From the NCBI GenBank assembly GCA_947629075.1, contig CANRCI010000001.1, positions 1 to 48,467 of the forward strand: 48,467 nt of DNA, in the 5' to 3' direction. The translations under genes and the position numbers were made by a program. Positions 1,198-48,173 of this stretch are shown in pieces. The notes beneath the pieces are model-generated. The model was not told where the DNA came from, ran no database searches, and saw nothing but the letters and a program-made list of their open reading frames with translations. The stretch comes from an uncultured Bacilli bacterium (lineage in GTDB: Bacteria; Bacillota_I; Bacilli_A; RF39; UBA660). Position 1 is the first letter of the stretch; each line of letters begins with the position of its first letter.

Positions 1198-1226
1198 AAT
1201 ATAGTAGAATAGAGGAGATGTTTATT

Positions 1227-2150
1227 ATGAAAATCCTAGAATATATGAGTTTTGATTTGGGTTGGTTTACTACTGTTCCTGGTATGATGATTACTGGCGG
1301 TATTGTATTATTATTGATTGGTCTAATAATATTTATTTTAAGCGGTAAGAAAAAGGATAGTGAGGAAGCTCCTAAGGAAGTTAAAGCAGAAGCTACTACT
1401 GATACAACTCCAGTTAGTGATGTACAAGTAGAAGTTCCTTCGGTTCCTGAAAGCGAGCCAGCACCAGCAGTTGTTGATGCTCAACCTGCACCAGCACCTG
1501 AAGTAGCACCTGTTAGTGTTGAACCAGTTGCTAGTGTTACACCAACTGAAGTAGCTACACCTAGTGATGCTAATGCCAGTGCTGAAGCTGTGGCTGAAAT
1601 TCCGACAGTAGAAGCAGCACCTGTTGCAGACGTTCAAGCGCCAGCAGAAACACCAGCACCAGAAGCAGCACCTACTGAAGCTGCACCAACAGTTCCAGAA
1701 GTTGCTCCAGCAGATGCACAAGCTATCCCAGCAGTTGAAGAAGTAAAACCGGTGGTAGAAGAAGAAAAGCCTGCAGTAGAAGCAGCACCTGTCGAAGAAG
1801 CTAAACCTTCAATTTATGGAGGAGCAGATCCACATTTAGATGCTGTGAAAGCTACTGAAGAACCACGTCAGATTTATGGTGGAGCCGATCCACTTGAAAA
1901 TACTGGTGCCTTACCTCGTGTTGAAGTTCCTGCTTTTGAAGAAGAAAAACCACAAGAACAACCAGCTGTTCCAACAGTAGAAGAGCCAAAAGCAGAACCA
2001 GTTGAAGAGAAAAAAGAAGAAGTAGTTATTCCGGCTGTCAGTGAAGAACCTAAGGAAGAAGTTGCTACACCTAGCGTAACAGTTCCAGCTGGAGAAGAGA
2101 AGAAAGAGGAAGCTCCAAAGACTGACGATATTGAAACATTAGAATTTTAA
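1227..2150 (+). CDS. Membrane-anchored low-complexity Pro/Ala/Glu/Val-rich protein
   Basis: N-terminal hydrophobic helix (GMMITGGIVLLLIGLIIFILSG) followed by ~270 aa of PAPE/VEE-type low complexity with a duplicated IYGGADP motif. ATG1227 has AGGAG 9 nt upstream; ATG1218 abuts the SD. Confidence 0.6.
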   Translation: MKILEYMSFDLGWFTTVPGMMITGGIVLLLIGLIIFILSGKKKDSEEAPKEVKAEATTDTTPVSDVQVEVPSVPESEPAPAVVDAQPAPAPEVAPVSVEPVASVTPTEVATPSDANASAEAVAEIPTVEAAPVADVQAPAETPAPEAAPTEAAPTVPEVAPADAQAIPAVEEVKPVVEEEKPAVEAAPVEEAKPSIYGGADPHLDAVKATEEPRQIYGGADPLENTGALPRVEVPAFEEEKPQEQPAVPTVEEPKAEPVEEKKEEVVIPAVSEEPKEEVATPSVTVPAGEEKKEEAPKTDDIETLEF

Positions 2151-2540: not shown

Positions 2541-2569
2541 TTGACAAGTTGACAGTTAAGTGTTATAAT
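2541..2569 (+). promoter_or_regulatory. Near-consensus sigma-A promoter with extended -10
   Basis: TTGACA (2541-2546), 17-nt spacer, TGT-TATAAT (2561-2569). The -35 lies in a tandem AGTTGACA duplication. Confidence 0.6.
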
Positions 2570-2650: not shown

Positions 2651-3079
2651 ATGGAAAATACCAAGAAATCTTATATCTTTGAATATCAAAACGAAAATGA
2701 TTTTAGAAAGAAAGAAAGAACAGTCAGAAAATATAACATGTTAGCTTATAAAAAGTTGACATTTAGTTATTATCCTGAACTTAGAAAAGGTAACTTTTTA
2801 GGTGAATTAGTTTCAGTTAATAAAAAAGACAATACTAAATCATACGAATTAAAGTTACCAACTGATGATTTATTTGTAAAAGTTCATGGAGAGATTCGTC
2901 TTCATTATACTGTTTACGAAGATAAGAACATCATTCTTTTAACTAACATTACACCAGAAGGTATCTTAGATGAAGGACATCGTGCTGAGTTAGGTACTTA
3001 TAAAGGTGTTATGATTTCTAAATCAAATCCCGAAAAAGATATGTTCAAAGTAAACTTGTTAAATATGTTACAAAAATAG
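2651..3079 (+). CDS. Hypothetical protein, possible RelE/ParE-like fold in the C-terminal half
   Basis: ORF track 2597..3079. ATG2651 is preceded by AAGGGG. Segment LFVKVHGEIRLHYTVYEDKNIILLTNITP resembles the RelE/ParE core pattern; no HTH or antitoxin partner seen. Confidence 0.35.
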   Translation: MENTKKSYIFEYQNENDFRKKERTVRKYNMLAYKKLTFSYYPELRKGNFLGELVSVNKKDNTKSYELKLPTDDLFVKVHGEIRLHYTVYEDKNIILLTNITPEGILDEGHRAELGTYKGVMISKSNPEKDMFKVNLLNMLQK

Positions 3080-3153: not shown

Positions 3154-3723
3154 ATGATAAACAGAGAAGATGGTTTTACCCTTATTGAACTTATGGCAGT
3201 TGTAATTATTTTAGGTATTCTTATGTTGATTGCTGTTCCAAATACAACAGCTATTCTTGAAAAGAATAAAAAAGATGCAATGATCGAAGATGCTAAAAAA
3301 TTAATTGCTTTAGCTCAATATCAAGTTAAGAAGGATAAAAATATTGAATTGCCAGAAACAGCAGATGAAGCAATAGTAATTACTCTTCAATATATGAATA
3401 CTGATAATTTGAATAAAACTAATTATTCTACTTATTATATAAAAGATAGAACTTTCGTGGCAATTAAGAAAAATGGAGATAAATATATCTATTATGCCAA
3501 TTTAGTATCTTGTAATACTGATACTTGTAATGATGAAAAATATGGAATCAATCTCGCTACTGAAGAACAATTGAGATCTGATGCCAGATTTGATTTAGTT
3601 AAAAATACTGAACAATTACAAGATTTTTTGATCAAAGCTAATACGAGTGGTGGCTATGAAATAAGTACGGTTTTAACTAGTCCATCAGGAGTTTTAAAAG
3701 CTACTAGAATAGATGTTTATTAG
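3154..3723 (+). CDS. Type IV pilin / pseudopilin (class III signal peptide), divergent from the tandem copies
   Basis: MINREDG|FTLIELMAVVIILGIL: short basic leader, Gly-1, Phe+1, Glu+5, hydrophobic helix. Cys pair at SCNTDTC. Confidence 0.8.
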   Translation: MINREDGFTLIELMAVVIILGILMLIAVPNTTAILEKNKKDAMIEDAKKLIALAQYQVKKDKNIELPETADEAIVITLQYMNTDNLNKTNYSTYYIKDRTFVAIKKNGDKYIYYANLVSCNTDTCNDEKYGINLATEEQLRSDARFDLVKNTEQLQDFLIKANTSGGYEISTVLTSPSGVLKATRIDVY

Positions 3724-3745
3724 AGAGTTTAACTCTCTTTTTTTT
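3722..3745 (+). terminator. Rho-independent terminator
   Basis: AGAGAG / CTCTCT stem followed by a T7 tract. Confidence 0.65.
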
Positions 3746-3782: not shown

Positions 3783-3811
3783 TTGACTGTGAATTTTGGG
3801 TATGCTAATAT
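3783..3811 (+). promoter_or_regulatory. Sigma-A-type promoter of the pilin array
   Basis: TTGACT (3783-3788), 17-nt spacer, TAATAT (3806-3811). It lies inside the ORF-track N-terminal extension of copy 1. Confidence 0.5.
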
Positions 3812-3842
3812 AAAATTATATGATAGGAAGGAAAGTGAAGGT

Positions 3843-4427
3843 ATGAGGAAGAATCAAAAAGGGTTTACATTGATCGAGTTGCTAGCTGTTATCATCATTT
3901 TAGGACTTTTAATGGCAATCGCAATTCCAAGTGTAACTCGTTATATTACACAATCAAGAAAGAAGACATTAGTTAATTCAATCGACAGTTTCATTTCCGC
4001 TGTAACAACAGCCGTAAATGAGCAAGAATTTGGAGCATTATCTAACCAAGAAAACATTTACTTTATACCGGTTTCAAATGATTCATCAAAGAGTTGCATC
4101 GAATTAGAAAAAGGTGGAACAGATCCGTTTGGAGTTTGGCAAGAAGCATATGTTGCAGTTCACTATGATGCAGAAAAGTTCAGTTATGATTACTATTTCA
4201 CATTCTATGATGATGCGGGATATGGTATGAGTTTAACTAAGAGTGATGATATAGCTACGAGTGGTAGTGATATCAAAAACCCAAGTCCAGTAAAGAGCGG
4301 TACAATCGTTAAGAATACAGTAGGGGCTAAAAAGCCTAAAGTAGGTGCAGCAGCTGCTGAAAACGCTACTCCTATGAAAATTCCTGTTGGTAATTGTAAA
4401 GTAGCTAATGCAACACCTGCTACTTAA
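3843..4427 (+). CDS. Type IV pilin, tandem paralog 1 (194 aa)
   Basis: MRKNQKG|FTLIELLAVIIILGLL class III signal peptide. Cys85 and Cys185 could form a D-region disulfide. ATG3843 follows a GAAGG SD. Confidence 0.85.
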   Translation: MRKNQKGFTLIELLAVIIILGLLMAIAIPSVTRYITQSRKKTLVNSIDSFISAVTTAVNEQEFGALSNQENIYFIPVSNDSSKSCIELEKGGTDPFGVWQEAYVAVHYDAEKFSYDYYFTFYDDAGYGMSLTKSDDIATSGSDIKNPSPVKSGTIVKNTVGAKKPKVGAAAAENATPMKIPVGNCKVANATPAT

Positions 4428-4469
4428 TAAATAGTTAGTTTGTAATAAAAAAATTATTTGGAGGTCAAA

Positions 4470-5060
4470 GTGAGAAAGAATCAAAAAGGATTTACTTTAA
4501 TCGAATTGCTTGCCGTTATCATTATCTTAGGACTTTTAATGGCAATCGCAATTCCAAGTGTAACAAGATACATTACACAATCAAGAAAGAAAACGTTGGT
4601 TAATTCAATCGATAGTTTCATTTCTGCTGTAACAACAGCTGTAAATGAACAAGAATTCGGTGCATTGTCTAACCAAGAAAATATTTACTTTATACCAGTT
4701 TCAAACGACTCAGCAAAAAGTTGTGTTGAACTAGAAAAAGGTGGAACTGATCCATTCGGAGCTTGGAAAGAGGCTTACGTAGCAGTTCACTATGATGCCG
4801 ATAAATTCAGTTACGATTATTATTTTACATTCTATGATGATGCTGGATATGGAATGCAATTGACTAAGAGTGACGATATAGCTACAAGTGGTAGTGATAT
4901 CAAAAATCCAAGTCCTGTTAAAAATGCAGATATCATAAAAAATACTGTAGGAGCTAAAAAATCCAGTGTAGCAAGTGCAGCAGATGCTAATCCGTTAGTA
5001 CTATCTACTACTGATTGCAAAGCTTCAACTGCTAAAGCTGGACCAGTAACAGTTAGTTAA
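4470..5060 (+). CDS. Type IV pilin, tandem paralog 2 (196 aa, GTG start)
   Basis: Same N-terminal 151 aa as the other copies with a few substitutions. GGAGG SD 5 nt upstream of GTG4470; the TTG4458 of the ORF track sits in the SD. Confidence 0.85.
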   Translation: MRKNQKGFTLIELLAVIIILGLLMAIAIPSVTRYITQSRKKTLVNSIDSFISAVTTAVNEQEFGALSNQENIYFIPVSNDSAKSCVELEKGGTDPFGAWKEAYVAVHYDADKFSYDYYFTFYDDAGYGMQLTKSDDIATSGSDIKNPSPVKNADIIKNTVGAKKSSVASAADANPLVLSTTDCKASTAKAGPVTVS

Positions 5061-5094
5061 TATTTGATAAAAAATAAATTATTTGGAGGTTAAA

Positions 5095-5685
5095 ATGAGA
5101 AAGAACCAGAAAGGTTTTACTTTAATTGAGTTGCTAGCCGTTATTATCATTTTAGGACTTTTAATGGCGATTGCAATTCCTAGTGTAACGAGATACATTA
5201 CACAATCAAGAAAAAAGACATTGGTTAATTCAATCGATAGTTTCATTTCTGCAGTAACGACAGCAGTAAATGAACAAGAGTTCGGTGCATTATCTAATCA
5301 AGAGAAAATTTACTTTATACCGGTTTCAAATGATTCAACGAAGAGTTGTGTTGAATTAGAAAAAGGTGGAACAGATCCATTTGGAGTTTGGCAAGAAGCA
5401 TATGTAGCAGTTCACTATGATGCCGATAAATTCAGTTATGATTATTATTTCACATTCTTTGATGACGCTGGATATGGTATGAAATTGACTAAGAGTGATG
5501 ATATTGCTACAAGTGGTAGTGATATCAAAAACCCAAGTCCAGTTAAACATGCTGATATTATTTCAAACACTGTAAGTGCCAAAAAAACTAGTAAGGCAGA
5601 TGCAGCTAATGCTGATGCGGTAGTACTATCTGCTAAAGATTGTAAAGCTGCAACTGCTACAAGCGGGCCAGCAGCAACTAGCTAA
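5095..5685 (+). CDS. Type IV pilin, tandem paralog 3 (196 aa)
   Basis: As above; ATG5095 follows GGAGG. Confidence 0.85.
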   Translation: MRKNQKGFTLIELLAVIIILGLLMAIAIPSVTRYITQSRKKTLVNSIDSFISAVTTAVNEQEFGALSNQEKIYFIPVSNDSTKSCVELEKGGTDPFGVWQEAYVAVHYDADKFSYDYYFTFFDDAGYGMKLTKSDDIATSGSDIKNPSPVKHADIISNTVSAKKTSKADAANADAVVLSAKDCKAATATSGPAATS

Positions 5686-5719
5686 TATTTGATAAAAAAT
5701 AAATTATTTGGAGGTTAAA

Positions 5720-6289
5720 ATGAGAAAGAATCAAAAAGGATTTACATTAATTGAGTTGCTTGCTGTTATCATTATTTTAGGACTTTTAATGGCAATCGCA
5801 ATTCCAAGTGTAACAAGATACATTACACAATCAAGAAAGAAAACGTTAGTTAATTCAATTGATAGTTTCATTTCTGCAGTAACGACAGCAGTAAACGAAC
5901 AAGAGTTCGGTGCATTATCTAATCAAGCCAATATTTACTTTATACCAGTTTCAAATGACTCATCAAAAAGTTGTGTTGAACTAGAAAAAGGTGGAACTGA
6001 TCCATTCGGAGTTTGGCAAAAAGCATATGTAGCAGTTCACTATGATGCCGACAAATTCAGCTACGATTATTATTTCACATTCTATGACGATGCAGGATAT
6101 GGTATGCAATTGACTAAGAGCGATGATATAGCTACAAGTGGTAGTGATATCAAGAACCCAAGTCCAGTAAAAGCTGATAATATTGTTACAAATAGTGTAA
6201 ATGCTAAGGCAAGTAGCGCACCTGGTGCTGCCAATGCTACTGCTAAAGAGATTACTGTTGCAGGTAATTGTAAAGTAAGTGCATCTTAA
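5720..6289 (+). CDS. Type IV pilin, tandem paralog 4 (189 aa)
   Basis: As above; ATG5720 follows GGAGG. Confidence 0.85.
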   Translation: MRKNQKGFTLIELLAVIIILGLLMAIAIPSVTRYITQSRKKTLVNSIDSFISAVTTAVNEQEFGALSNQANIYFIPVSNDSSKSCVELEKGGTDPFGVWQKAYVAVHYDADKFSYDYYFTFYDDAGYGMQLTKSDDIATSGSDIKNPSPVKADNIVTNSVNAKASSAPGAANATAKEITVAGNCKVSAS

Positions 6290-6308
6290 TAACATTAAAT
6301 TAAACGTT

Positions 6309-6335
6309 AAAGATTTAGTTATCTAAATCTTTTTT
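6309..6335 (+). terminator. Rho-independent terminator closing the pilin array
   Basis: AAAGATTTAG / CTAAATCTTT 10-bp stem, 4-nt loop, T tract. It is the only hairpin terminator between 3811 and 6335. Confidence 0.75.
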
Positions 6336-6381
6336 CTTTGTTTAAAAAATAGTATAATATTAGTTGTTGAGGAGTGGTTAT

Positions 6382-7248
6382 ATGTTAGTTATTGGAAGTC
6401 ACGTTGGTTTCAATAAAGATAGTCAATTAGTTGGTAGTGTTAAAGAAGCTTTGGGGTATAATGCTAATACTTTTATGTTTTATACTGGAGCACCACAAAA
6501 TACTAAAAGAAGTGGTATCGATGATGGATTAACTTTAGAGGCCTATAATCTGATGAAAGAAAATGGTATAAAATTGGAGGACGTTATTGTTCATGCTCCT
6601 TATATTGTTAACTTAGCTAATAAAACGGATATCGATAAATACAGTTTTTCTAAACGTTTTTTAAAAGAAGAATTAAACAGATGTGAATTATTGGGGATGA
6701 AATATTTAGTTCTACATCCTGGTAGCCATGTTGGTCAAGGAGTAGAAGTTGCTATTCAAAATATTGCTGATGCTTTAAATGAAGTTTTGGAAGGTTCTAA
6801 AGTTATCGTCCTTCTTGAAACTATGGCTGGTAAGGGTACGGAAGTTGGAAGAAATTTCGAAGAGATAAAGAGTATAATTGATAAAGTAGTTCATAAAGAT
6901 AAAATTGGTGTTTGTTTGGATACTTGTCATTTAAACGATGCTGGTTATGATGTTAATTCTTTTGATAAAGTTCTAGATGAATTCGATAAAGTTGTTGGTC
7001 TTAAATACGTTCATTGCATCCATATCAACGACAGTAAAAATCCTTGTGGTAGTCATAAAGATCGTCACGAGAATATCGGTTATGGTACGATTGGCTTTGA
7101 TAGTATGATAAAGATTATCTATAATGATAGATTAAAAAATATTCCTAAGATTTTAGAGACTCCTTGGATTGGTGATTATCCTCCTTATAAAGAAGAGATC
7201 GAATCTATTAGAAATAAAAAGTTTAATGATAAATTAAAAGAAGATTAG
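6382..7248 (+). CDS. nfo: Deoxyribonuclease IV (endonuclease IV)
   Basis: HAPYIVNLA, VLHPGSH, LETMAGKG and CLDTCH motifs. GAGGAG SD before ATG6382. Confidence 0.9.
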   Translation: MLVIGSHVGFNKDSQLVGSVKEALGYNANTFMFYTGAPQNTKRSGIDDGLTLEAYNLMKENGIKLEDVIVHAPYIVNLANKTDIDKYSFSKRFLKEELNRCELLGMKYLVLHPGSHVGQGVEVAIQNIADALNEVLEGSKVIVLLETMAGKGTEVGRNFEEIKSIIDKVVHKDKIGVCLDTCHLNDAGYDVNSFDKVLDEFDKVVGLKYVHCIHINDSKNPCGSHKDRHENIGYGTIGFDSMIKIIYNDRLKNIPKILETPWIGDYPPYKEEIESIRNKKFNDKLKED

Positions 7249-14288: not shown

Positions 14289-16787
14289 ATGAAAAAATTA
14301 AATCGAAATGATTATTTAAATATATTTATTTTAGTATTATTGTTGTTATGTTCATTAGTGATTTCCTTCGGTACTAAATATGGTTTTGGTTCAGTTATCG
14401 ATTGGAGTTGTCAGCATTATAAAATTCCCGAATATTTTAGAGAATTATTTTATAGTACCGGAAATTTGTTTCCCAACTTTGCTTTCAATCTTGGTGGTGG
14501 ACAGAACATCTATTTTTTATCTTATTATGGCCTTTTTAATCCGGTAATTATGTTTAGTTATCTATTGCCATTTGTAAGTATGCGAACTTATATAACTTTT
14601 AGTAGTATTGCTTTAGTAATCTTAAGTATATTTTTACTTTATAAATTTATAAATGATAAATATGACTCCAAGTTAGCCTTTTTAGGATCATTTATTTTTA
14701 TTTGTTCAGCTCCCATAGTTTTTCATCTTCAAAGACATATCATGTTCATAAATTATATGCCTTTTCTAATTATGGCTTTTATGGGAGTAGATGAGCACTT
14801 TAAGAATAGACACGATTTTCTTTTGATCATCAGTGTGACGTTGGTCATTTTATCTAGTTACTTTTTTAGTGTTTCAGCTTTAGTAGCTATTAGTATCTAT
14901 GCCGTTTTTTGTTATTTAAAATTTGAACGAGAAATCAACTTTAGAACTTTTTTTGTCAATGCTTTGGCATATTTAAAACCGATTGTAATTGCAATTATGA
15001 ACAGTGCAATTCTTTTAATTCCAACGTTTATTGCACTTTTATCAGGACGTAGTAAGACTAATAATGATACATCGATATTGAGTTTAATCATACCGGAGTT
15101 TAATACCGGTGATATATTGTACAAACCATATACCACTGGACTTTCAATGATATTGATATTTGCTATAATCTGGTTTGTCGTAAATAAGAAAAAAGAAAAT
15201 AAATTTTTAGGTATAACTAGTTTATTAATAGTTTTATTTCCAATTTTTATTTATCTGTTAAACGGATTTATGTATGTCGAAGGTAAGGTTTTAATTACTT
15301 TTTTACCTCTATTTATTTTAATGATTATCGAGTGTTTAAACGAGATGTTTAAGACCAAGGAGAAATTAGTTTTAAGTACTGGAATTTTTACGGCGGTCAG
15401 TTTGATTTACCTATTGGTCAATTTTAGAAGTATTAGTGATTATCTAATTTTATTCGATTGTCTATTTTTAATACTTAGTCTTTTAATTTTGATAATTTAT
15501 GATAAAAAGCAATATTTAATAATATCTATTGTTTTAGTATCGATTGGTACATTTTTAAATGCTAGTTTAACTAATAAATTAGTGGGTAGAGATGATTATT
15601 TATACGATTATGATGAAATTGTAGAATATATTGATAAGTTGAGTAGTGAAGACAATTTATTTCGCGTTAATTATTTGACTAAACATTTAGATTCATCTAA
15701 TAAGATTTATGGTAGTAATCATTTGACAAGTAGTATCTATTCATCGTTATCTAATAAGTATTATAAAGATTTTTATTATAATGAATTGTACAATGAAGTT
15801 ATGCACAGGACAACAGGACAGATGGGAAATACGGAAAATTTACTCTTCAATATCCTGATGTCCAATCGTTACATTTTAGCAGAAAACTTAGATAGTATTG
15901 CTTATGATAAAGTCGATGCAATAAAAACTGGTGATGGTAAGACGATAAACGTTTATGAAAATGATAATGTTTTACCGATTATCTATGCATCTAATAAGAT
16001 TATGTCCTATGACGATTACGAACGTTTAAATGATGTTGAAAAAACTCTAGCTAATTTAAATTATGTCGTCGTAAATGGTGATGAGAGTACGGATTATTCT
16101 TTTAATTATGGAAAAGTAAATTATGATAAGACTTATCAATCACCTGATAAGAAACATATCGTTTTAGAAAGCGATGACGATTTGGAGAATAAGATCGTTT
16201 TAATCAGTTTTAAACTCAACAGCAATAATTCTTGTAGGATTGGAGATAATGCGATAACGATTAATGGTATCTTTAATAAACTTAGTTGTAAGAGTTGGAA
16301 ATACCACAATAAAAACTATAATTTTAAGTATGTCATTGCTGGTCAAGATAACAGTAAACTAGATATTACACTAGGTGATGGCAATTACGACATTTCAGAT
16401 TTATCTTTTTATTGGTTAGACTATAGTGATATCGAAAAGTTAAATGACGATGTTACGGCCGTAAATATTTCTAAAACTCGTAACAATGGTGATATAATAG
16501 AAGGAGAAGTAAAAATAAGTGATTCTTCTTATATCAAGACTTCTATTCCATATGACAATGGCTTTAGGGTATATGTCGATGATGAAGAAGTACTTGCTGA
16601 AAGAGTCAATGAAGACTTTTTAGGATTTGAAATTAGTAAAGGGAGTCATCACATAAAAATAGTTTATACGGCTCCGGGAGAAAAAGTTGCTAAAATGATA
16701 ACTTTTATAGGAATAACTATTAGTTTTGTCAGTTTGTATTTAGAATTTGGAATGACTAAAGCTAAAAGAAAAATAAAATTTGAGTGA
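14289..16787 (+). CDS. YfhO-family polytopic membrane glycosyltransferase-like protein
   Basis: 832 aa: ~13 hydrophobic segments, then a large extracytoplasmic C-terminal domain and a final TM. Followed by a GtrA-family gene. Confidence 0.6.
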   Translation: MKKLNRNDYLNIFILVLLLLCSLVISFGTKYGFGSVIDWSCQHYKIPEYFRELFYSTGNLFPNFAFNLGGGQNIYFLSYYGLFNPVIMFSYLLPFVSMRTYITFSSIALVILSIFLLYKFINDKYDSKLAFLGSFIFICSAPIVFHLQRHIMFINYMPFLIMAFMGVDEHFKNRHDFLLIISVTLVILSSYFFSVSALVAISIYAVFCYLKFEREINFRTFFVNALAYLKPIVIAIMNSAILLIPTFIALLSGRSKTNNDTSILSLIIPEFNTGDILYKPYTTGLSMILIFAIIWFVVNKKKENKFLGITSLLIVLFPIFIYLLNGFMYVEGKVLITFLPLFILMIIECLNEMFKTKEKLVLSTGIFTAVSLIYLLVNFRSISDYLILFDCLFLILSLLILIIYDKKQYLIISIVLVSIGTFLNASLTNKLVGRDDYLYDYDEIVEYIDKLSSEDNLFRVNYLTKHLDSSNKIYGSNHLTSSIYSSLSNKYYKDFYYNELYNEVMHRTTGQMGNTENLLFNILMSNRYILAENLDSIAYDKVDAIKTGDGKTINVYENDNVLPIIYASNKIMSYDDYERLNDVEKTLANLNYVVVNGDESTDYSFNYGKVNYDKTYQSPDKKHIVLESDDDLENKIVLISFKLNSNNSCRIGDNAITINGIFNKLSCKSWKYHNKNYNFKYVIAGQDNSKLDITLGDGNYDISDLSFYWLDYSDIEKLNDDVTAVNISKTRNNGDIIEGEVKISDSSYIKTSIPYDNGFRVYVDDEEVLAERVNEDFLGFEISKGSHHIKIVYTAPGEKVAKMITFIGITISFVSLYLEFGMTKAKRKIKFE

Positions 16788-16797
16788 GGTAGTAAAC

Positions 16798-17250
16798 ATG
16801 GAAAAAAAGTTAAAAAAATATTATCGTCTTATAAGAGAAATATATACTGATTATAAAGAGGTCATCAATTACTTGATAGTTGGTGTTTTGACCACTGTAG
16901 TTAGTATCGTCTCTTTTGCTATATTTCAAAATTTTGCATTAGGTTTTAGTCTTTTTGGTCTAACAGTAAAAAAGTATATGGTTTCAACAGTTCTATCTTG
17001 GATTGTTGCCGTTTTATTCGCCTATGTAACTAACAGAAAATTTGTCTTTGAAAGTCATTCTAAGAAAGTTGTTTCCGAATTTATCAAATTTGTCACAGCT
17101 CGTATTATGTCTTTATTGGCTGAAATTGTATGTATGTACATTTTGATCGATTTGATGCATAGTGATGAGATGATTGCTAAAATATTAGTTCAAGTTTTAA
17201 TAATAGTATTAAATTATGTCTTTAGTAAATTGTTCGTCTTTAAAAAATAA
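16798..17250 (+). CDS. GtrA-family membrane protein
   Basis: ~150 aa with four hydrophobic helices and the YLIVGVLTTVVSIVSF.. pattern. GAGGTAG SD before ATG16798. Confidence 0.65.
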   Translation: MEKKLKKYYRLIREIYTDYKEVINYLIVGVLTTVVSIVSFAIFQNFALGFSLFGLTVKKYMVSTVLSWIVAVLFAYVTNRKFVFESHSKKVVSEFIKFVTARIMSLLAEIVCMYILIDLMHSDEMIAKILVQVLIIVLNYVFSKLFVFKK

Positions 17251-24501: not shown

Positions 24502-24762
24502 TTGGAAATTGTAAAGATAAGTGCTATTTGGTGTGGTGGTTGCTTAAAGACGAATAAGGCTATAAAAAAAGTAAAAGAAAATTATAAAGATATCACTATT
24601 TCCAATTTAGATTACGATATGGATGAAGAAAAAGTAGCGCCTTTAAATGTAGGAGAAATACTTCCGGTAATGATTTTTTATAAAGATGGGAAGGAAGTTG
24701 CAAGACTTATTGGTGAGAAAAATTATGACGAAATAGTGGAGGTAATAAAGAGACATGTCTAA
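24502..24762 (+). CDS. Small thioredoxin-fold protein with a WCGGC motif
   Basis: 86 aa, ISAIWCGGCLK. TTG start. Confidence 0.6.
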   Translation: MEIVKISAIWCGGCLKTNKAIKKVKENYKDITISNLDYDMDEEKVAPLNVGEILPVMIFYKDGKEVARLIGEKNYDEIVEVIKRHV

Positions 24763-25972
24763 ACTTAACAAGATAATTATCACAATTTTTCTCTTGTTCT
24801 TAATCTTTTTACCAACTAATATTTTTGCTTTAAGTTCTGATTATAAAGATGTCGTTCACGAAATAGTTGGTGAAAAAGAAGTAAAAGATAAGGTAACGAT
24901 CTATTTTTTCCACGGTTATAGTTGTCCCCATTGTAAAGAGGAAACTGGTTTTTTAGATCAACTTGAAAAGAAGTATGATGGAAAAATTTTAATTCGTAAA
25001 TACGAGACTTGGAAAGAAGAAAATAAACAGAATGCCAAATGGGCTAATGAGGTTCGTCATCATTTCGGTATAACGAGAGAGGGAGTACCACTTACCGTTG
25101 TCGGTGAAAAGTATTACTCTGGTTATTCCGATGTCATTGGTTATAGAATTGAAAAACAAATAGATCTGTACTTAGCTGAAGAAGAGAGTGATGACGACCA
25201 AGAAAAGACGATTGTCGAATCTAATAAATATAAAATTCCGATATTGGGAGAGATAGATGTCACTAAAGCATCAATATTCTTAATCGCTGTTGTACTAGGA
25301 TTTATCGATGGCTTTAATCCTTGTGCTATGTGGGTTCTTCTATTCATTATCAATATGTTATTGGGAATGGAAGATAAAAAGAAAATGTTCATTTTAGGGT
25401 TTGCTTTCTTATTTACCAGTGCTTTTATATATTTTCTATCGATGTTAGGAATTAGTTTTGTCCTAGGAAACTTTACTGGTGTTTTACGATCTCTAATCGG
25501 AGTTGTCGGTATTGTTTTGGGATCTGTTCAGCTGTATAACTATTACCAAACTAGGAATCGTGAAGATGGATGTGTTGTAGTAGATAAGAAAAAGCGCAAA
25601 AACATCACTCGTAAAATTACTTCGATTAAGGAATCACGAAATTTCTTCTTAGCACTAATCGGGGTTATCTCTCTTGCGGTATCGGTCAATCTAGTGGAAC
25701 TTGCTTGTTCCTTAGGTTTTCCTGCTACCTTTAGTGAGATTCTTACTATTAACAATGTCGATTTGATCATGCGAATTGTCTATTTGCTAATCTATGTCTT
25801 CATGTATATGCTCGATGATATAGTTGTCTTCATCATATCGATGTCAACTCTTTCATTAGTAGGTATGACGACTAAATACAATAAACTTGTAAAACTGATC
25901 GGTGGAATTATTATGATTCTGATGGGAATTCTTTTGATATTTAAACCGGAATGGATAATGTTAAGATTTTAA
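24755..25972 (+). CDS. Fusion of an extracytoplasmic thioredoxin-like domain (CPHC) and a CcdA/DsbD-like membrane domain
   Basis: Signal anchor; FFHGYSCPHCKEE; then six or more hydrophobic helices, with FNPCAMW in the first. Confidence 0.6.
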   Translation: MSKLNKIIITIFLLFLIFLPTNIFALSSDYKDVVHEIVGEKEVKDKVTIYFFHGYSCPHCKEETGFLDQLEKKYDGKILIRKYETWKEENKQNAKWANEVRHHFGITREGVPLTVVGEKYYSGYSDVIGYRIEKQIDLYLAEEESDDDQEKTIVESNKYKIPILGEIDVTKASIFLIAVVLGFIDGFNPCAMWVLLFIINMLLGMEDKKKMFILGFAFLFTSAFIYFLSMLGISFVLGNFTGVLRSLIGVVGIVLGSVQLYNYYQTRNREDGCVVVDKKKRKNITRKITSIKESRNFFLALIGVISLAVSVNLVELACSLGFPATFSEILTINNVDLIMRIVYLLIYVFMYMLDDIVVFIISMSTLSLVGMTTKYNKLVKLIGGIIMILMGILLIFKPEWIMLRF

Positions 25973-33318: not shown

Positions 33319-34749
33319 ATGAATAGTTGGTTTGATCGTTTTAAAGATTTCTTCAAAAACAAATATGTTCTTATATCATTTATTGTCTTAGTATTGTCTT
33401 TTTTTCTTGTATTTTTAGTATATGTAGTGTTTGTTCCTAAAATTATTATTAACGGTAAAGAAAAAGTTGTGTTGCAGTATAATGACAAGTATAGTGAAAA
33501 TGGAGCTTATGTACTAGGTGATGATGATGGGGTTGAAATAGAGGGTAAGGTCGATACTAGTAAGATTGGTGAGTACGAGGTTGTATATAAATATAAAAAG
33601 TTTGGTATTACTTTTACTAAAAAGAGAATTGTCGAGGTCAAAGATGAAAAAGGACCGGATTTAGTTTTAACGGGTGAAGATGAAGTTAATGTCTGCCCTA
33701 ATAGGGATTACGAAGAAGAGGGTTACAAATCAGTTGATGAGTATGATGGCGACATTACTGATCAAGTGGTAGTAAATAGAGAAGATGACCAAATAACTTA
33801 TATCTCTACTGACAAGAGTGGTAATAAGACGACAGTCTTTAGAAAAATAGTTAAAGAAGATAATGTTAAGCCGGTTATAACCCTTAAGGGAAATAGTGTC
33901 ATGTACGTTGTTGTCGGTAGTAAATTTACTGATCCATCTGTCAAAGTAGTCGATAATTGTGATAGCAATTTGGAAGAGAAGGTCGTAACTGAAGGAAATG
34001 TTGACATTAATAAAGTTGGAAAGTATACTATTAAATATAAGGTAATTGATAGTAGTAACAACACATCAGAAGTAACTAGAGTTGTCAATGTCGTGAATAA
34101 AAATACGACCAATTCTAGTAGAGGAATACCTGGTGTTATCTATTTGACATTTGATGATGGACCTAATAGTGGAACGACTAATGTCATTTTGGATATCTTA
34201 AAAGAAGAAGGAGTAAAAGCTACTTTCTTTGTAACGATGCGAGGACCTGATTCTTTGATTAAAAGGGAATTTGATGAAGGTCATACAGTTGCATTACATA
34301 CGGCATCGCACAATTATAAGACGGTTTATACATCAGTTGATGGATATTTCAAAGACTTGAATAAAGTATCTAATCGTGTGGAAAAGATCACAGGAGTTAA
34401 ATCTATGATAATTAGATTCCCTGGAGGAAGTAGTAACACAGTAAGTAGACATTATAATATTGGAATAATGACGACACTTACGAGCGAGGTACTAAATCGT
34501 GGTTATCGTTATTACGATTGGAACATTTCATCTGGTGATGCTGGTGAAACCAAAAACAAAGATAAAGTATACGCCAACGTTGTTAACAATTTAAGTAAGA
34601 AACGTGCTAATGTGGTGTTAATGCACGATATAAAACCTTATACTCGAGATGCTCTTCGCAAAATAATTAAGTATGGTAAAGAAAATGGTTATACTTTTGA
34701 ACGCATTACGATGGATACACCTATGGTAACTCAAAGAGTTAATAATTAG
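33319..34749 (+). CDS. Membrane-anchored polysaccharide deacetylase (NodB domain) with two Ig-like (DUF5011-type) repeats
   Basis: TM anchor; two repeats ending ..GKYTIKYKVIDSSNN..; NodB motifs LTFDDGP, HTASH and RFPGG. Confidence 0.8.
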   Translation: MNSWFDRFKDFFKNKYVLISFIVLVLSFFLVFLVYVVFVPKIIINGKEKVVLQYNDKYSENGAYVLGDDDGVEIEGKVDTSKIGEYEVVYKYKKFGITFTKKRIVEVKDEKGPDLVLTGEDEVNVCPNRDYEEEGYKSVDEYDGDITDQVVVNREDDQITYISTDKSGNKTTVFRKIVKEDNVKPVITLKGNSVMYVVVGSKFTDPSVKVVDNCDSNLEEKVVTEGNVDINKVGKYTIKYKVIDSSNNTSEVTRVVNVVNKNTTNSSRGIPGVIYLTFDDGPNSGTTNVILDILKEEGVKATFFVTMRGPDSLIKREFDEGHTVALHTASHNYKTVYTSVDGYFKDLNKVSNRVEKITGVKSMIIRFPGGSSNTVSRHYNIGIMTTLTSEVLNRGYRYYDWNISSGDAGETKNKDKVYANVVNNLSKKRANVVLMHDIKPYTRDALRKIIKYGKENGYTFERITMDTPMVTQRVNN

Positions 34750-34758
34750 GAGGATTTT

Positions 34759-36423
34759 ATGAAAAATAGAATAAAGGGATTATTGGTATTAATAGGACTT
34801 TCGTTGTTAGTTTTAAGTCCTGTTGATGTAAGTGCTGCCCAAAATACGAGTTTACTTCCAGCTAGTGGAAAAAATGTCGCATCTCCTGGTGATGAAATAA
34901 GTTATGTGATCACCCTTAGTAGTACTGACACAATAATCAGTTATAGAGCTAGTTTAGAGTATGACTCTTCAATATTACGACTAGTCAGTATAAGTAATGG
35001 TAGTGGATGGAGTGGTCAAAACAGCATATCTAGTCGTGATCTTTCATTTACTACAAATGGGGTTAGTGGTCAGAGCAATGTTGCTACTCTAAAGTTTAAG
35101 GTTGCAACTAACACTAGTAAAAAAAGCACCATCATTAGGTTAAACGGGGTTAATGTATGTGCCAAAGAAAGTAATACGCCGACTACTCCGGAGACGACTC
35201 CTACTACGCCAACTGATCCTGCAACTGCTGCATGTTCCAATATTACCACGTCACCAAAAACCTTAAACATTCAATCTAGCGATAATCAGTTATCGGCTTT
35301 AAAAGTAAATGGTAAGAGTGTATCTAACTTTTCCAAGAACAATTACGAATATGCGATGAGTGTTGAATCCAGTGTTGAGAAAGCTGTCATTAAAGCTACG
35401 ACTAATGATAGTTCTGCTAGTTTTGTCGATGGTTTTGGAAATAGAACCGTTGATCTTGAATACGGTGAAAACAAAATTGAAGTTCGTGTCAAATCAGAAC
35501 GAGGAGATCAACAAGTATATACGATTAGAATTAACCGTGAAGATGACCGAACTACTGAAAACCATTTGGAAGAAATAGTAATTGGTGATAAAAAAATAGA
35601 GAAGTTCGATAAAGATACTTTAAGTTACTATGTCAAAGTATATAAACAAGATAAAATTACAATTACAGCCTTGACGGTAGATGAAAAGGCTACTTATAAA
35701 GTTGATGGACCAACGACTTTGAAAATTGGTGAAAACGAATTTAAAATTACTGTAACTAGTGAAGCCGGAGAAGATTTAATCTATACCGTTACCGTTGATA
35801 ATATCGATAGTGAGATCAGTAAAAAGCTAAAATCTTTATCGATTAGTGGTTATGATATCGAATTTGATAAAAATAATCAGCGATATGAGATTTTGTATAA
35901 TAAAGATTTAATAAAGAAACTAAAGATTTATTTTACAACTGAAGCTAAAAGTGATGAAGTTACTGTTACAGTTACTCCTGATTTAGACGATAAAGAAGCT
36001 CTAGCTAAACTTAAAGCTGGAGATGAGATAGTTATTACTATTGAAGGTATTGATGGTGAAAAAGAAGAGTACGTAATAGTTTTAAAGAAAGATAAACGAA
36101 TTAATTTCTTCTTTGTTGTCGAATTAATAATCTTAATCGGTTTAATCGCTGCTATAACAGTAGTAGTTATCAAACGTAAGAAAGATAAAAATAACCCTAC
36201 AAAGAAAGAAAAGACAAAAAAAGAAAATGATAATGATGACGATGATTCAGTTGTAATTGCTAAACATGGTAAAACTGCAAGTAGTCGTGTTGAGCGTTAT
36301 GATGAAGAAAAACCTAAAAAGAAAAAGAGATTTTCCATCTATGAAGATGAATATGAAGAAGTAGAAATTGAAGTAGATGATGAAGATGAAGAAGAAATAG
36401 GTCAAACTAAAGAGTATAAATGA
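34759..36423 (+). CDS. Surface protein: signal peptide, cohesin-like domain, Thr/Pro linker, three cadherin-like beta-sandwich repeats, C-terminal TM and charged tail
   Basis: Signal peptide ..VDVSAAQN; TPTTPETTPTTPTDP linker; three repeats of type L..L.V.G..V..F....Y.Y...V...; TM FFFVVELIILIGLIAAITVVVI; K/D/E-rich tail. Confidence 0.65.
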   Translation: MKNRIKGLLVLIGLSLLVLSPVDVSAAQNTSLLPASGKNVASPGDEISYVITLSSTDTIISYRASLEYDSSILRLVSISNGSGWSGQNSISSRDLSFTTNGVSGQSNVATLKFKVATNTSKKSTIIRLNGVNVCAKESNTPTTPETTPTTPTDPATAACSNITTSPKTLNIQSSDNQLSALKVNGKSVSNFSKNNYEYAMSVESSVEKAVIKATTNDSSASFVDGFGNRTVDLEYGENKIEVRVKSERGDQQVYTIRINREDDRTTENHLEEIVIGDKKIEKFDKDTLSYYVKVYKQDKITITALTVDEKATYKVDGPTTLKIGENEFKITVTSEAGEDLIYTVTVDNIDSEISKKLKSLSISGYDIEFDKNNQRYEILYNKDLIKKLKIYFTTEAKSDEVTVTVTPDLDDKEALAKLKAGDEIVITIEGIDGEKEEYVIVLKKDKRINFFFVVELIILIGLIAAITVVVIKRKKDKNNPTKKEKTKKENDNDDDDSVVIAKHGKTASSRVERYDEEKPKKKKRFSIYEDEYEEVEIEVDDEDEEEIGQTKEYK

Positions 36424-42803: not shown

Positions 42804-42833
42804 AACTTAACGGTTTTATTTTTTTTGGCCTTA

Positions 42834-42842
42834 TGGTATAAT
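42834..42842 (+). promoter_or_regulatory. Extended -10 promoter element upstream of the tad-like operon
   Basis: TGgTATAAT. It lies inside the ORF-track extension 42825..42869. Confidence 0.4.
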
Positions 42843-42869
42843 TTAATTATTAAAATAGGGGTGAAATTT

Positions 42870-43226
42870 ATGCCTAAAACTAATAGTAAAGGACAAGCTT
42901 TAGTAGAATTTTTACTTATCTTGCCAATTTTTCTGTTCATTCTTTTGGCAGTCGTAGATTTTGGCAGAATTTTTGTTACTAGAAGTAATTTGGAATCCCT
43001 TTCTAGTGAAGCAGTAAAGCTCTATGAAAAAGATAGTAATTATGATACCGTCAACAAAGAATTAAAAGAAATATCATCAGATGAGTTTGTTTTGTCTATT
43101 GACAAAAACGGTAATAAAGTTAAGATTGTCGTTCAACGTGATGTAAGCATTATGACACCTGGTTTACAACAAGTTTTAGGTAAAGTTTACAAAGCTAGTA
43201 GTGAAAGAGTGATTTTAGATGAATAA
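42870..43226 (+). CDS. TadE-like pseudopilin
   Basis: MPKTNSKG|QALVEFLLILPIFLFILLAVVDFGRIF: TadE N-terminal motif with Gly-1 and Glu+5. Confidence 0.75.
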   Translation: MPKTNSKGQALVEFLLILPIFLFILLAVVDFGRIFVTRSNLESLSSEAVKLYEKDSNYDTVNKELKEISSDEFVLSIDKNGNKVKIVVQRDVSIMTPGLQQVLGKVYKASSERVILDE

Positions 43227-44208
43227 TAATCGTGGACAGGCATTAGTATTATTTGTTCTTTTTCTACCAGTATTGATGCTCATCTTAGCGTGGTCAATAG
43301 ATACAGTTTACTTAAATTACGAGAAACAAAAATTAGATGGAATAACTACTTCAATTATGGAGAACTTAAAAAATTACCCAGGAGCCGATGAAAAAGTAAT
43401 CACTGAACTTTTTGAAGATAACGATCGCGATATTGAAGTTTTAAAAAGTAATGTTCAAAGCGATAAAATAAGTATTTCCTTAAAAAAAGAAATTCCCAGT
43501 TTATTTGGAAGAATTATAGGTTACAATACTTATTCATTAAAACTAGAAAAAGATTACGATTATGAAGCATTAGACAGCATTTACGCTCCAGTTAACAATG
43601 GCCTTTACTTACATTTTACAGGTATAGATGCGTTAAATGATGACAATGAATTAGTTGATCGAACTGGTATAAACAAAATCGATTATTTCAATTTAAGTTG
43701 GGATAAGAAAGACCATTATTATAGTTTTAATGGTAAGGATTCACGCATCACCAATAGTATCGATTTTGAAAACGCAACCAACTATTTTACTATTCAAATG
43801 TTGTTTAGAACCAAAGATGTTAACAATTACAATAAAGTCTTAGTTTTAGATTTTTACGATATAAAAGACCAAGTTTTAAAATTGACTTTTAGGATTAATA
43901 ATGGTGTTTTAGAAGTATATGACGATTCAGAAAAAATTGGTGAGACAAAAGTAAATCCAATTTCAAAATACTATGTTGAGATAACCAAGGATGACAATGG
44001 TCTAAACATATATTTAGATAATGAATTGTTAGTTAGAAAAGATATTGGTTTCACTTTAAAGTCAATCATTACTAATATCGGAATGGAGAAAGATGATAAT
44101 TCGTCATTTGATGGTGGTATATACACATATCGCATTTATAATAGACTTTTAACCGATGAAGAGAGAAGTAAAAACTATAGTAATGCTTTAAAAGAGTATA
44201 CATCTTAA
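43219..44208 (+). CDS. TadG/TadE-like N-terminal anchor fused to a LamG (concanavalin A-like lectin) domain
   Basis: MNNNRG|QALVLFVLFLPVLMLILAWSIDTVY. The C-terminus has the LamG hallmarks ..YYVEITKDDNGLNIYLDNELL.. and FDGGIYTYRIYNRLLTDEE. Confidence 0.7.
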   Translation: MNNNRGQALVLFVLFLPVLMLILAWSIDTVYLNYEKQKLDGITTSIMENLKNYPGADEKVITELFEDNDRDIEVLKSNVQSDKISISLKKEIPSLFGRIIGYNTYSLKLEKDYDYEALDSIYAPVNNGLYLHFTGIDALNDDNELVDRTGINKIDYFNLSWDKKDHYYSFNGKDSRITNSIDFENATNYFTIQMLFRTKDVNNYNKVLVLDFYDIKDQVLKLTFRINNGVLEVYDDSEKIGETKVNPISKYYVEITKDDNGLNIYLDNELLVRKDIGFTLKSIITNIGMEKDDNSSFDGGIYTYRIYNRLLTDEERSKNYSNALKEYTS

Positions 44209-44213
44209 ATATA

Positions 44214-44222
44214 TGATATAAT
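44214..44222 (+). promoter_or_regulatory. Possible internal extended -10 promoter before the ATPase genes
   Basis: TGaTATAAT in the 37-nt gap. Confidence 0.3.
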
Positions 44223-44245
44223 TATTAAGATAGATAGGTGATAAT

Positions 44246-45025
44246 ATGGAGATTAAAAAAGGGAAAATATTTACAATTACATCGATGAAAGGTGGCGTAG
44301 GAAAGACTACTTTCGTCATGAGTTTAGCTAAAATTTGTGAAGAAGAAAAATTGAAAGTACTAATTATGGATTTAGATTTTTATACTGGAAATGTTGCTTT
44401 TTCATTGAATGCTAAAACTAAAGGAAGTATCTATAACCTATGTGATGATATGGCCAATAATCGTATTAAATATGGTGTAACTGATGAATATATCCACAAG
44501 ATAAATGATTATATCGATATCGTATCCTCACCTAAAGATCCTAGAGATGTAACTAAGATAGATGATAAATACATCGATGCCATTCTTAACAATTTAGTAT
44601 ATAAATACGACGTAATTTTAATAGATACTAACCATGTACTAAATGAACATAAAATGGTCGCGTTTGATTTAAGTGATAAGATAATTGAAATACTTACCAA
44701 TGATGCTTTTGATTTACAAGGAAATAAAACTTTTATGGCAATATGTAAAAATATGAAAGTAGATAATGTTATCTTAGTCCTTAATAATTCGATTGATGAA
44801 CGAAAGAGATATTTTTCGATGTATGATATAAAAAATATTTTAGGTAGAAATGTCAATTATATTATTCCTACTAGTTTTTATTTAAAAAATTATCAACAGA
44901 TGGTTATGGATGGCGATATTTTGAATTTTAAGAACAAATTATCATCAGCTGGTAAAAAAGATTATTCTAAATTCAGAGAGAATATGAAAAAAATATTATT
45001 AGAGGGTGGTAAAGATGGCAAATAA
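44246..45025 (+). CDS. TadZ/CpaE-like ParA/MinD-family ATPase (no receiver-like domain)
   Basis: Deviant Walker A TSMKGGVGKTT and LIDT Walker B region. Positioned directly upstream of cpaF. Confidence 0.7.
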   Translation: MEIKKGKIFTITSMKGGVGKTTFVMSLAKICEEEKLKVLIMDLDFYTGNVAFSLNAKTKGSIYNLCDDMANNRIKYGVTDEYIHKINDYIDIVSSPKDPRDVTKIDDKYIDAILNNLVYKYDVILIDTNHVLNEHKMVAFDLSDKIIEILTNDAFDLQGNKTFMAICKNMKVDNVILVLNNSIDERKRYFSMYDIKNILGRNVNYIIPTSFYLKNYQQMVMDGDILNFKNKLSSAGKKDYSKFRENMKKILLEGGKDGK

Positions 45026-46445: not shown

Positions 46446-46461
46446 AAAAAGGAGGTAGACC

Positions 46462-47469: not shown

Positions 47470-48173
47470 TGAATAGAAATAATTCTCGACTTGCATATCG
47501 TATATATAGTAGGAAAGAAATAGAAAAATATCAGCGAAAAATCGATTTATTTGGCTATGGAAAGAGTTATGACGCAACTATTTTTCTAAATATTAGACTT
47601 CTTACTTCCGCTTTCTTGTTTTTTATGATATTATATATATTCGAGTTGGGATACGTCTTAGCACCTATTCTTACCGTTTTATATTATTATTTCTTTCCTT
47701 ATTTTGTAATTGATCGAAAATTACAGAAGAGAAGTGATAAATTAGATAATGATGCGATGTATTTCTTTGAAGTTATGACTCTATCAGTTGAAACTGGTAG
47801 AAATTTAAAAACAGCTTTAGAGCTTACAGCTAATACGGTCGATAGTGAATTATCTGATGAATTCAAACAAACGTTAAAAGAAGTAAGATATGGTAAAAGC
47901 TTAAATGAAGCTTTGGATGATTTGAAGAGAAGAATCCCATCTGATACAATTAATAATATTATTCTTAATATTTCACAGTCTAATATTTTTGGTAATAGCA
48001 TTATCGAGACGATGTATAATCAAATAGACTATATAAGAGATAGACAAATAATGAGAGCAAAAGCTAGTATTAGCAAGGTACCATTAAAAGTCTCAGTAAT
48101 TTCTGTACTTTTTTATATACCTTTAATAATGTTATTGATTTTATCGCCAGTAATAATAGAATATTTTAGTTAG
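47469..48173 (+). CDS. TadC-like type II secretion F-domain membrane protein
   Basis: T2SSF-like domain ([23 protein letters not shown]..) flanked by TMs. Start overlaps the tadB stop. Confidence 0.75.

Follow-up and report, generated by a model that had tools for sequence, protein, structure and literature searches.

The window analysed here comprises 48,467 nucleotides from an uncultured Bacilli bacterium (contig CANRCI010000001.1) and carries, at positions 3843-6289 of the forward strand, four tandem type IV pilin genes, which we designate A to D (Table 1). Their products start with MRKNQKGFTLIELLAV, i.e. MRKNQKG followed by FTLIELLAV, which represents a class III (prepilin) signal peptide. 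It has the form MRKNQKG plus FTLIELLAVIIILGLL and combines a short basic leader ending in Gly with F+1, E+5 and a hydrophobic helix. The copies match Pfam N_methyl (6e-10, above cut-off) and TIGR02532 (3.9e-8); beyond the signal peptide and the N-terminus no family model of Pfam or TIGR/NCBIfam covers the proteins. No copy lacks a start codon, a ribosome-binding site or a signal peptide, and the open reading frame (ORF) is full length in each, so that each is expressible, as a first-pass annotation made from the sequence had recognized.

The same annotation described the four proteins as nearly identical through residue 151 and divergent thereafter, with tails of 43, 45, 45 and 38 aa starting at 4296, 4923, 5548 and 6173, and this division is exact. 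We therefore refer to residues 1-151 as the core and to residue 152 to the end as the tail. The cores share 95-97% identity at the protein level, with 10 of 151 columns variable, whereas the tails are only 32-61% identical. In a codon-aware alignment evaluated according to Nei-Gojobori, the cores show a synonymous divergence (dS) of 0.42-0.97 and a non-synonymous divergence (dN) of about 0.02 (dN/dS 0.03-0.04), compared to a dS of 0.53-1.6 and a dN of 0.29-0.62 in the tails (dN/dS 0.28-0.68). The tail ratio is 10-20 times the core value, yet below one, and positive selection on the tail is thus not demonstrated. Along sliding windows of 30 codons, dN/dS is 0.00-0.08 in the core and rises to 0.44-0.66 in the tail, which exceeds the average of 0.12 for the whole gene and agrees with the special status that had been assigned to this segment. 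For the A-B pair, non-synonymous differences amount to about 9 at 356 sites in the core versus 30 at 92 sites in the tail (Fisher p = 1.6e-15).

At the DNA level, the picture is different. Synonymous sites differ in an even proportion along the entire gene (0.35-0.56; about 44% of synonymous sites in the core), the core DNA of the copies is 86.5-91.8% identical, and identical runs are typically 20-40 nt long, with a maximum of 71 nt between B and D. Only the amino-acid divergence is confined to the tail, and the proposal that a variable cassette is bracketed by conserved DNA does not hold on its 5' side, given this level of core identity and the high synonymous divergence. The protein identity of the cores is maintained by purifying selection on copies that have long been separate and not by homogenised DNA; a core dS of 0.4-1.0 means that no recent conversion has run across the cores in this genome. 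Downstream of the stop codons, the expected return of conservation is seen in the B-C and C-D spacers (5061-5094 and 5686-5719), which are indeed identical, but not in the A-B spacer, which is unlike the other two apart from AAAAAATTATTTGGAGGT-AAA, nor downstream of D, where no homologous DNA follows. Because the identity ends abruptly at both spacer edges, functional constraint on a translation initiation region seems more likely than recent conversion. We also considered a frameshift origin of the tail differences, but the other reading frames contain many stops, and no similarity is seen across frames. Selected synonymous recoding that would stabilise the array is an unnecessary assumption, as a dN/dS of 0.03 is ordinary under strong constraint and between-species dS is saturated.

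An AlphaFold2 model of copy C, based on 109 homologues, reached a mean predicted local distance difference test score (pLDDT) of 82 and a predicted template modelling score (pTM) of 0.75. It has the usual lollipop shape of pilins, consisting of a helix of about 50 residues (10-59) and strands at residues 71-76, 99-109, 114-123, 128-133 and 174-177. Within the tail, residues 161-170 are modelled as coil (mean pLDDT 48; 162-167 below 50), residues 171-190, which include strand 174-177 and Cys183, are ordered (mean pLDDT 85-90), and residues 191-196 form a floppy end (mean pLDDT 55). According to the model, the tail is not merely a loose end: a flexible loop leads into the last strand, which is followed by a conserved Cys and a short, disordered terminus. 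The tails also have more in common than the (N/D)CK cysteine and the Ala/Thr/Ser/Pro/Gly-rich end to which their conservation had been restricted: they share a start of the form I-(V/I)-x-N-(T/S)-V-x-A-K, and their Cys is preceded by a short hydrophobic stretch that corresponds to the modelled strand 174-177. A Foldseek search with the model against the PDB revealed no match with E < 0.67, leaving the head domain without a solved relative, and in a PDB profile search only the N-terminal helix could be aligned (8pfb_G, 4.6e-8, residues 10-61).

The invariance of Cys85 extends from the four copies to all 109 family members, and since Cys183 is conserved in at least 90% of them, the two are conserved as a pair. 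A Cys follows GYGM in 105 of the 109 members, and 69 have exactly two Cys. Cys183 probably staples the C-terminus to Cys85. Such a link would connect residues about 98 positions apart and tie the C-terminus to the alpha-beta region; with this span, it does not correspond to the classical short D-region loop, with which the variable stretch had been equated. A 405-aa protein encoded at 24755-25972 (+) shows a borderline match to Thioredoxin_4 (DsbA-like; 23.0 bits vs a cut-off of 23.2) and is a possible helper for the proposed disulfide.

The predicted exposure of the variable C-terminus at the surface gains indirect but strong support from the wider family. Among the 120 listed of 1,741 homologue matches, protein lengths range from about 114 to 343 aa, and the added length is always C-terminal to the conserved Cys. 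Segments after this Cys reach from about 100 to about 550 aa in relatives, some of which carry an LRR_5 or dockerin domain there. In a related Bacilli assembly (L007, 333-8940), four tandem pilins of about 690 aa each end in a C-terminal leucine-rich-repeat module of about 545 aa. As relatives append segments and domains after the same Cys, the C-terminus very probably faces outward on the filament.

The four genes appear to be co-transcribed from a single promoter as one operon. A promoter-like site precedes pilin A (Table 1), which is a consensus match only, from a scan that yielded no more sites than shuffled sequence. In the A-B, B-C and C-D spacers, the consensus scan revealed no comparable promoter-like site and nothing terminator-like, and it is the lack of terminators between the copies that makes A-D look like one operon. 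Downstream of D, a probable operon terminator was missed by the scan because its stem has fewer than three G-C pairs; the surrounding 50 nt (6296-6345) fold with -11.1 kcal/mol (z = -4.7). A search of Rfam gave no RNA element within the pilin locus. Copy A is also catalogued as a 212-aa protein (P0002) whose start precedes the promoter-like -10 element (window 3783-3842); both its orthologues and the conserved leader AGGAAAGGAAG indicate that the ATG at 3843 is its start.

Cores and tails do not support the same relationships among the copies. Of the parsimony-informative sites in the core, 12 group A with C and B with D, and 4 group A with D and B with C; in the tail, 14 support the latter grouping and none the former (Fisher p = 2.2e-5 for the conflict). 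The tails represent two types, one formed by A and D and the other by B and C (Table 1). For pairs within a type, core and tail dS are about equal (A-D 0.81 vs 0.68; B-C 0.68 vs 0.53), whereas between types the core is younger, as in B-D with a dS of 0.42 in the core vs 1.10 in the tail. These patterns indicate that core and tail of A-D have different histories and that the underlying events are old.

No strains of the same species were found: exact look-ups with the pilins of the window matched no contig, and the closest sequences showed 72% identity among genome contigs and 55% over the N-terminus among metagenome contigs. Syntenic loci of related species were used in their place. These loci share the order of a conserved 139-aa ORF, the pilin-like gene X, one or more major pilins, and nfo. 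Wherever two copies are present in these loci, the core is far younger than the tail: core and tail dS are 0.01 and 0.63 in L082, 0.09 and 0.86 in L087, 0.23 and 0.97 in L085, and 0.26 and 1.57 in L090. In L082, 452 of 453 core nucleotides as well as the 5' leader are conserved between the copies, while the tails of 62 and 39 aa are unrelated. More distantly related arrays behave likewise: L018 shows a dS of 0 over the first 100 codons and of 0.92 in the tail, and in L005, L007 and L023 dS between copies is patchy.

A comparison of L092 (one copy, 1249-1854) with L087 (two copies, 5992-7240), whose flanking DNA is 98% identical, illustrates how copy number can change. The L092 gene agrees with the first L087 copy at 16 of 16 informative positions up to nt 138 and with the second at every informative position from nt 513, and the switch point lies in a 375-nt tract that is identical between the L087 copies. 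It is an exact chimera produced by one unequal crossover between cores, which, because the first tail is old, most simply represents a deletion from two copies to one. Moreover, a test resembling the pairwise homoplasy index (PHI) on five alleles of the L087 species group gave p <= 0.0002 overall. Homologous recombination between copies is thus real in this family; it stops at the core/tail junction or shortly upstream of it and alters the copy number (1, 2 or 4) across related loci. The sharp boundary is explained by ordinary conversion, which stops where homology ends. In a two-copy locus, a homogenised core and swapped tails leave indistinguishable patterns.

We favour, with moderate confidence, the interpretation that A-D encode isoforms of a single major type IV pilin, which are expressed together and vary in an exposed C-terminus. 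The isoforms share the N-terminal helix and a globular scaffold (residues 1-151), which is near-invariant most plausibly because all copies use the same assembly machinery and pack in the same lattice. The last 38-45 residues, stapled but partly flexible, would decorate the filament surface, so that a cell could present as many as four surface variants on the same scaffold, with the isoforms either mixed in one heteropolymeric filament, as in the case of Streptococcus sanguinis PilE1/PilE2, or assembled into alternative filaments. The variation would arise from ordinary substitutions and indels, on which selection is either relaxed or diversifying, accompanied by occasional homologous recombination between copies. 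As the divergence of the tails prevents their pairing, conversion tracts and crossovers would end near the core/tail junction; the cores would evolve in concert, the tails would stay distinct, and unequal crossovers would change the copy number. The retention of four intact copies, which could easily be lost by crossover, argues that the differences matter, and immunity, phage or adhesion targets may act as the selective agent.

Such an arrangement would have a precedent. Strains of S. sanguinis carry 2-3 tandem major pilins that differ in their C-terminal tail, vary in pilin copy number between strains, and assemble these pilins, which have a flexible C-terminus, stochastically into one filament (PMC6497953, PMC10628169, PMC11121087). 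As in PilE1/PilE2 (PilA1-3), the genes A-D are adjacent, full-length major pilin genes; the N-terminal helix is identical, the heads are very similar, and the differences lie mostly in the C-terminal tail (plus one loop in S. sanguinis), where a flexible, outward C-terminus would tolerate replacement. In S. sanguinis, copy number also differs among strains, and paralogues of one strain resemble each other more closely than those of different strains. Stochastic co-assembly in one filament, which is described there, may also apply to A-D. In contrast, only the N-terminal helix of A-D can be aligned with the streptococcal pilins and the head belongs to another, unsolved family, which makes A-D an analogue of the S. 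sanguinis system and not a member of the family. Further differences are the four copies in one operon away from pil machinery genes, the longer variable part (38-45 aa vs about 10) and the conserved, probably stapling Cys in the tail, whereas the PilE1 tail is unstapled. By this analogy, A-D would represent a multi-isoform major-pilin locus of a layout already known from S. sanguinis, and because of this parallel, current concepts are left unchanged.

The family can also be related to the concept of modular type IV pilins, exemplified by S. sanguinis PilB and PilC (PMC8179133). Relatives of A-D graft LRR_5, dockerin and other segments after the Cys, where the A-D tails end; the A-D tails themselves are 38-45 aa long without a recognisable domain, and A-D are apparent major and not minor pilins. 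Concerted evolution by partial gene conversion is known from duplicated bacterial genes such as tufA/tufB, opa and other surface-protein families. The related loci resemble these cases in that the alignable part is homogenised and young cores stand beside old variable segments. The cores in the window differ from them, as they have not been homogenised recently (dS 0.4-1.0) and purifying selection explains their identity.

Several points weigh against the isoform interpretation. Surface exposure and the disulfide are both deduced from sequence, and anaerobic Firmicutes are less expected to form disulfides in the proteins that they export. As the head domain has no solved relative, there is no filament model to borrow. 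The evidence for co-transcription consists of consensus scans. Moreover, for the A-D type of pilin the window encodes neither an assembly ATPase nor a platform protein nor a prepilin peptidase, and therefore piliation itself is something that we infer. In short-read assemblies, the near-identical cores of L082 and L018 could partly be an assembler consensus of a collapsed repeat, which does not explain the intermediate core dS in L085, L087 and L090. Finally, the tail dN/dS below one is compatible with neutral drift of a loosely constrained segment.

This last point leads to the possible but doubtful alternative that the array arose by duplication for dosage, that a loosely constrained and partly disordered C-terminus then drifted, and that the isoforms are functionally equivalent. 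A tail dN/dS of 0.3-0.7, the low-complexity Ala/Thr/Ser/Pro/Gly composition and the low pLDDT of residues 161-170 and 191-196 would all be in line with drift, and in S. sanguinis the last seven residues of PilE1/PilE2 can be replaced by a His tag while the cells stay piliated (PMC6497953). However, paralogues in that species are not functionally equivalent despite 94% identity (PMC11121087). In addition, copies are easily lost by core crossover, as seen in L092 compared to L087, and relatives with a single copy exist (L001, L091, L092), but here four intact copies have persisted to a dS of 0.4-1.0 with a core dN/dS of 0.03. At least six other loci independently combine near-identical cores with different tails; conversion keeps the cores alike there but has not erased the tail differences, and inside the tail the Cys and the preceding strand are conserved.

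An antigenic or adhesive variation system, in which tail cassettes are moved by conversion, either between the four copies, all expressed, or with alleles imported from outside, appears unlikely. Here, the core upstream and the spacer plus next core downstream would serve as homology arms, resulting in an all-expressed analogue of neisserial pilE/pilS. The conflict between core and tail trees, the natural crossovers between cores in L087/L092 and the identity of two of the three spacers are in agreement with such exchange, and tail A looks mosaic, with its first ~10 residues like B and its Cys region like D. Furthermore, tails of the L087 group share short blocks in conflicting combinations; the corresponding PHI-like signal within the tail is, however, weak and very local (p = 0.012 at k = 3) and vanishes at larger k (p = 0.17 and 0.53). 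In an all-against-all comparison of 61 short-tailed members, no pair shared a tail (>60% identity) on clearly diverged cores, with two comparisons right at the core threshold of 85%, whereas in many pairs the cores are at least 93% identical and the tails 24-59%. Tail B is identical in P0027 and P0241 from two further contigs of other data sets, and has thus remained unchanged in three independent contigs. The core arms, with their short identical runs and a dS that speaks against recent conversion, do not favour this reading either, and the patterns of the two-copy loci are equally explained by core homogenisation.

The features of programmed switching were looked for as well. None of the four genes is a silent or truncated donor copy, no G-quadruplex (G4) motif (G3+N1-7 x4) is present on either strand between 3000 and 6500, and the locus has no homopolymer of 8 or more apart from the terminator T8. 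The only inverted repeats are AT-rich, chance-like pairs with 70-93% complementarity, and near-identical flanks are restricted to the 3' spacer at two of three junctions, given a 5' side of only 86.5-91.8% identity. Without silent copies, G4, inversion repeats and slippage tracts, the locus is not a system of the pilE/pilS type, and nothing points to programmed cassette swapping. A-D and the neisserial system are alike in that a C-terminal, Cys-containing exposed region of a type IV pilin varies and that several homologous copies per genome recombine with each other. In Neisseria, however, the pilS copies are promoterless and 5'-truncated, whereas A-D are complete and expressible; A-D lack a G4, their flanking homology of 86-92% is not near-identical, the sequences compared give no sign of ongoing non-reciprocal transfer, and their disulfide would span about 98 residues and not bound a short D-region. 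The geometry of the neisserial system that had been suggested for this locus is therefore not borne out.

That strain variants of a single gene were stitched together in tandem is very improbable: the window resembles a metagenome-assembled contig, short contigs with fragments of B break inside the core, and the identical repeats in L082 and L018 could be a collapsed consensus, but the copies differ at 8-13% of their core nucleotides, are joined by distinct spacers with ribosome-binding sites, share no run longer than 71 nt, which is short enough to assemble through, and have counterparts in multi-copy arrays of the same order in independent assemblies from different studies (L082, L085/L086, L087, L090).

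Returning to the isoform interpretation, type IV pili of gut and rumen Firmicutes are, to our knowledge, almost unstudied. The locus and its relatives with one to four copies suggest that multi-isoform pili with a shared scaffold and a differing exposed C-terminus may be routine in these bacteria. The related loci provide a clean natural example of recombination that keeps cores alike and tails distinct and changes copy number. If the tails set adhesion targets, immune recognition or phage attachment, they would offer commensals a simple route to surface diversity, and the pilin C-terminus would be a natural site for display engineering. A more far-reaching and speculative idea, to which we give little weight, is that the family represents a lineage-wide, standing device for surface diversity, in which a conversion-homogenised scaffold carries one to four expressed, recombining C-terminal cassettes per genome. 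If so, ordinary homologous recombination would add, remove and reshuffle cassettes into mosaics and thereby generate population-level variation of the pilus surface; a gut commensal would then have an all-expressed equivalent of the systems with silent cassettes.

Table 1. Positions of the pilin genes, their tails and spacers, and of surrounding features in the window.
Feature	Position	Strand	Length	Remarks
Promoter-like site	2541-2569	+		perfect TTGACA-17-TATAAT with TG extension; precedes ORF 2651-3079
ORF	2651-3079	+	about 142 aa	immediately upstream of pilin cluster
Pilin-like gene X	3154-3723	+	189 aa	MINREDGFTLIELMAV...; Pfam N_methyl 7e-8, TIGR02532
Terminator-like hairpin	3722-3738	+		followed by T8 run; consensus scan; closes gene X
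Promoter-like site	3783-3811	+		TTGACT-17-TAATAT with TG extension; consensus scan; upstream of pilin A
Pilin A	3843-4427	+	194 aa	core 3843-4295
Tail A	4296-4424	+	43 aa	type 1 (…GNCKV…, two NAT motifs)
A-B spacer	4428-4469	+	42 nt	GGAGG ribosome-binding site; without terminator
Pilin B	4470-5060	+	196 aa	GTG start
Tail B	4923-5057	+	45 aa	type 2 (…VLSxxDCKA…GPxT(V/T)S)
B-C spacer	5061-5094	+	34 nt	TATTTGATAAAAAATAAATTATTTGGAGGTTAAA; GGAGG ribosome-binding site
Pilin C	5095-5685	+	196 aa	
Tail C	5548-5682	+	45 aa	type 2
C-D spacer	5686-5719	+	34 nt	identical to B-C spacer; GGAGG ribosome-binding site
Pilin D	5720-6289	+	189 aa	
Tail D	6173-6286	+	38 aa	type 1 (one NAT motif; …GNCKVSAS)
Hairpin	6309-6339	+		AT-rich, 10 bp, AAAGATTTAG/CTAAATCTTT, then T run; probable A-D operon terminator
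Tad-type pilus locus	42825-48173	+		family matches

The window represents chromosomal DNA of a low-GC spore-former, encoding SpoIIIAH, a Germane-domain protein, a PASTA kinase and Mur ligases, and the nearest relatives in databases are genomes of a "Bacilli bacterium" assembled from rumen and gut metagenomes. The pilin cluster is located between an RluA-type pseudouridine synthase and nfo / PBP2 / efp. Gene X, directly upstream of A, is about 23% identical to the A-D cores (core-profile score 55) and has a counterpart at the same position in L082, L085, L087, L090, L091 and L092. The ORF that precedes it occupies the same position in L082, L085, L086, L087, L091 and L092 and is far more conserved than the adjoining pilins. 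It has 5,480 homologues, the best 120 of which are 83-93% identical and all unnamed. A search of Pfam and NCBIfam gave no match for this ORF and matches in the PDB were at chance level only (E >= 0.016), and its AlphaFold2 model is of low confidence (mean pLDDT 57). At the other end of the window, the Tad-type locus encodes a TadE-like protein, a 329-aa Laminin_G_3-like protein, a ParA/MinD-like TadZ, a TadA/CpaF ATPase and two T2SSF proteins. It is a second filament system, which serves Flp-type pilins and is separate from the GFTLIE pilins; no other filament machinery is encoded in the window.

An Ig-like polysaccharide deacetylase followed by a cohesin and cadherin-like protein is encoded at 33319-36423 (+), and the same deacetylase/cohesin pair lies downstream of a 376-aa pilin in L083 (17389-20648). 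Pilins of the family end in a dockerin in P0098, P0101 and P0106, and in LRR_5 in P0020 and P0111. In sequence terms, this hints at a pilus-linked cohesin-dockerin display. Asn-Ala-Thr motifs are found in tail A (4359-4367 and 4410-4418) and tail D (6233-6241), with none in B or C, and a Ser/Thr-rich end is common to all four tails; glycosylation of the tails is conceivable. A YfhO/GtrA pair is located at 14289-17250. Upstream of the pilin cluster, 1218-2150 (+) encodes a membrane-anchored, Pro/Ala/Glu/Val-rich low-complexity protein of 310 aa without a family match, with a local GC content of 0.44-0.46 vs 0.27-0.35 in its surroundings.

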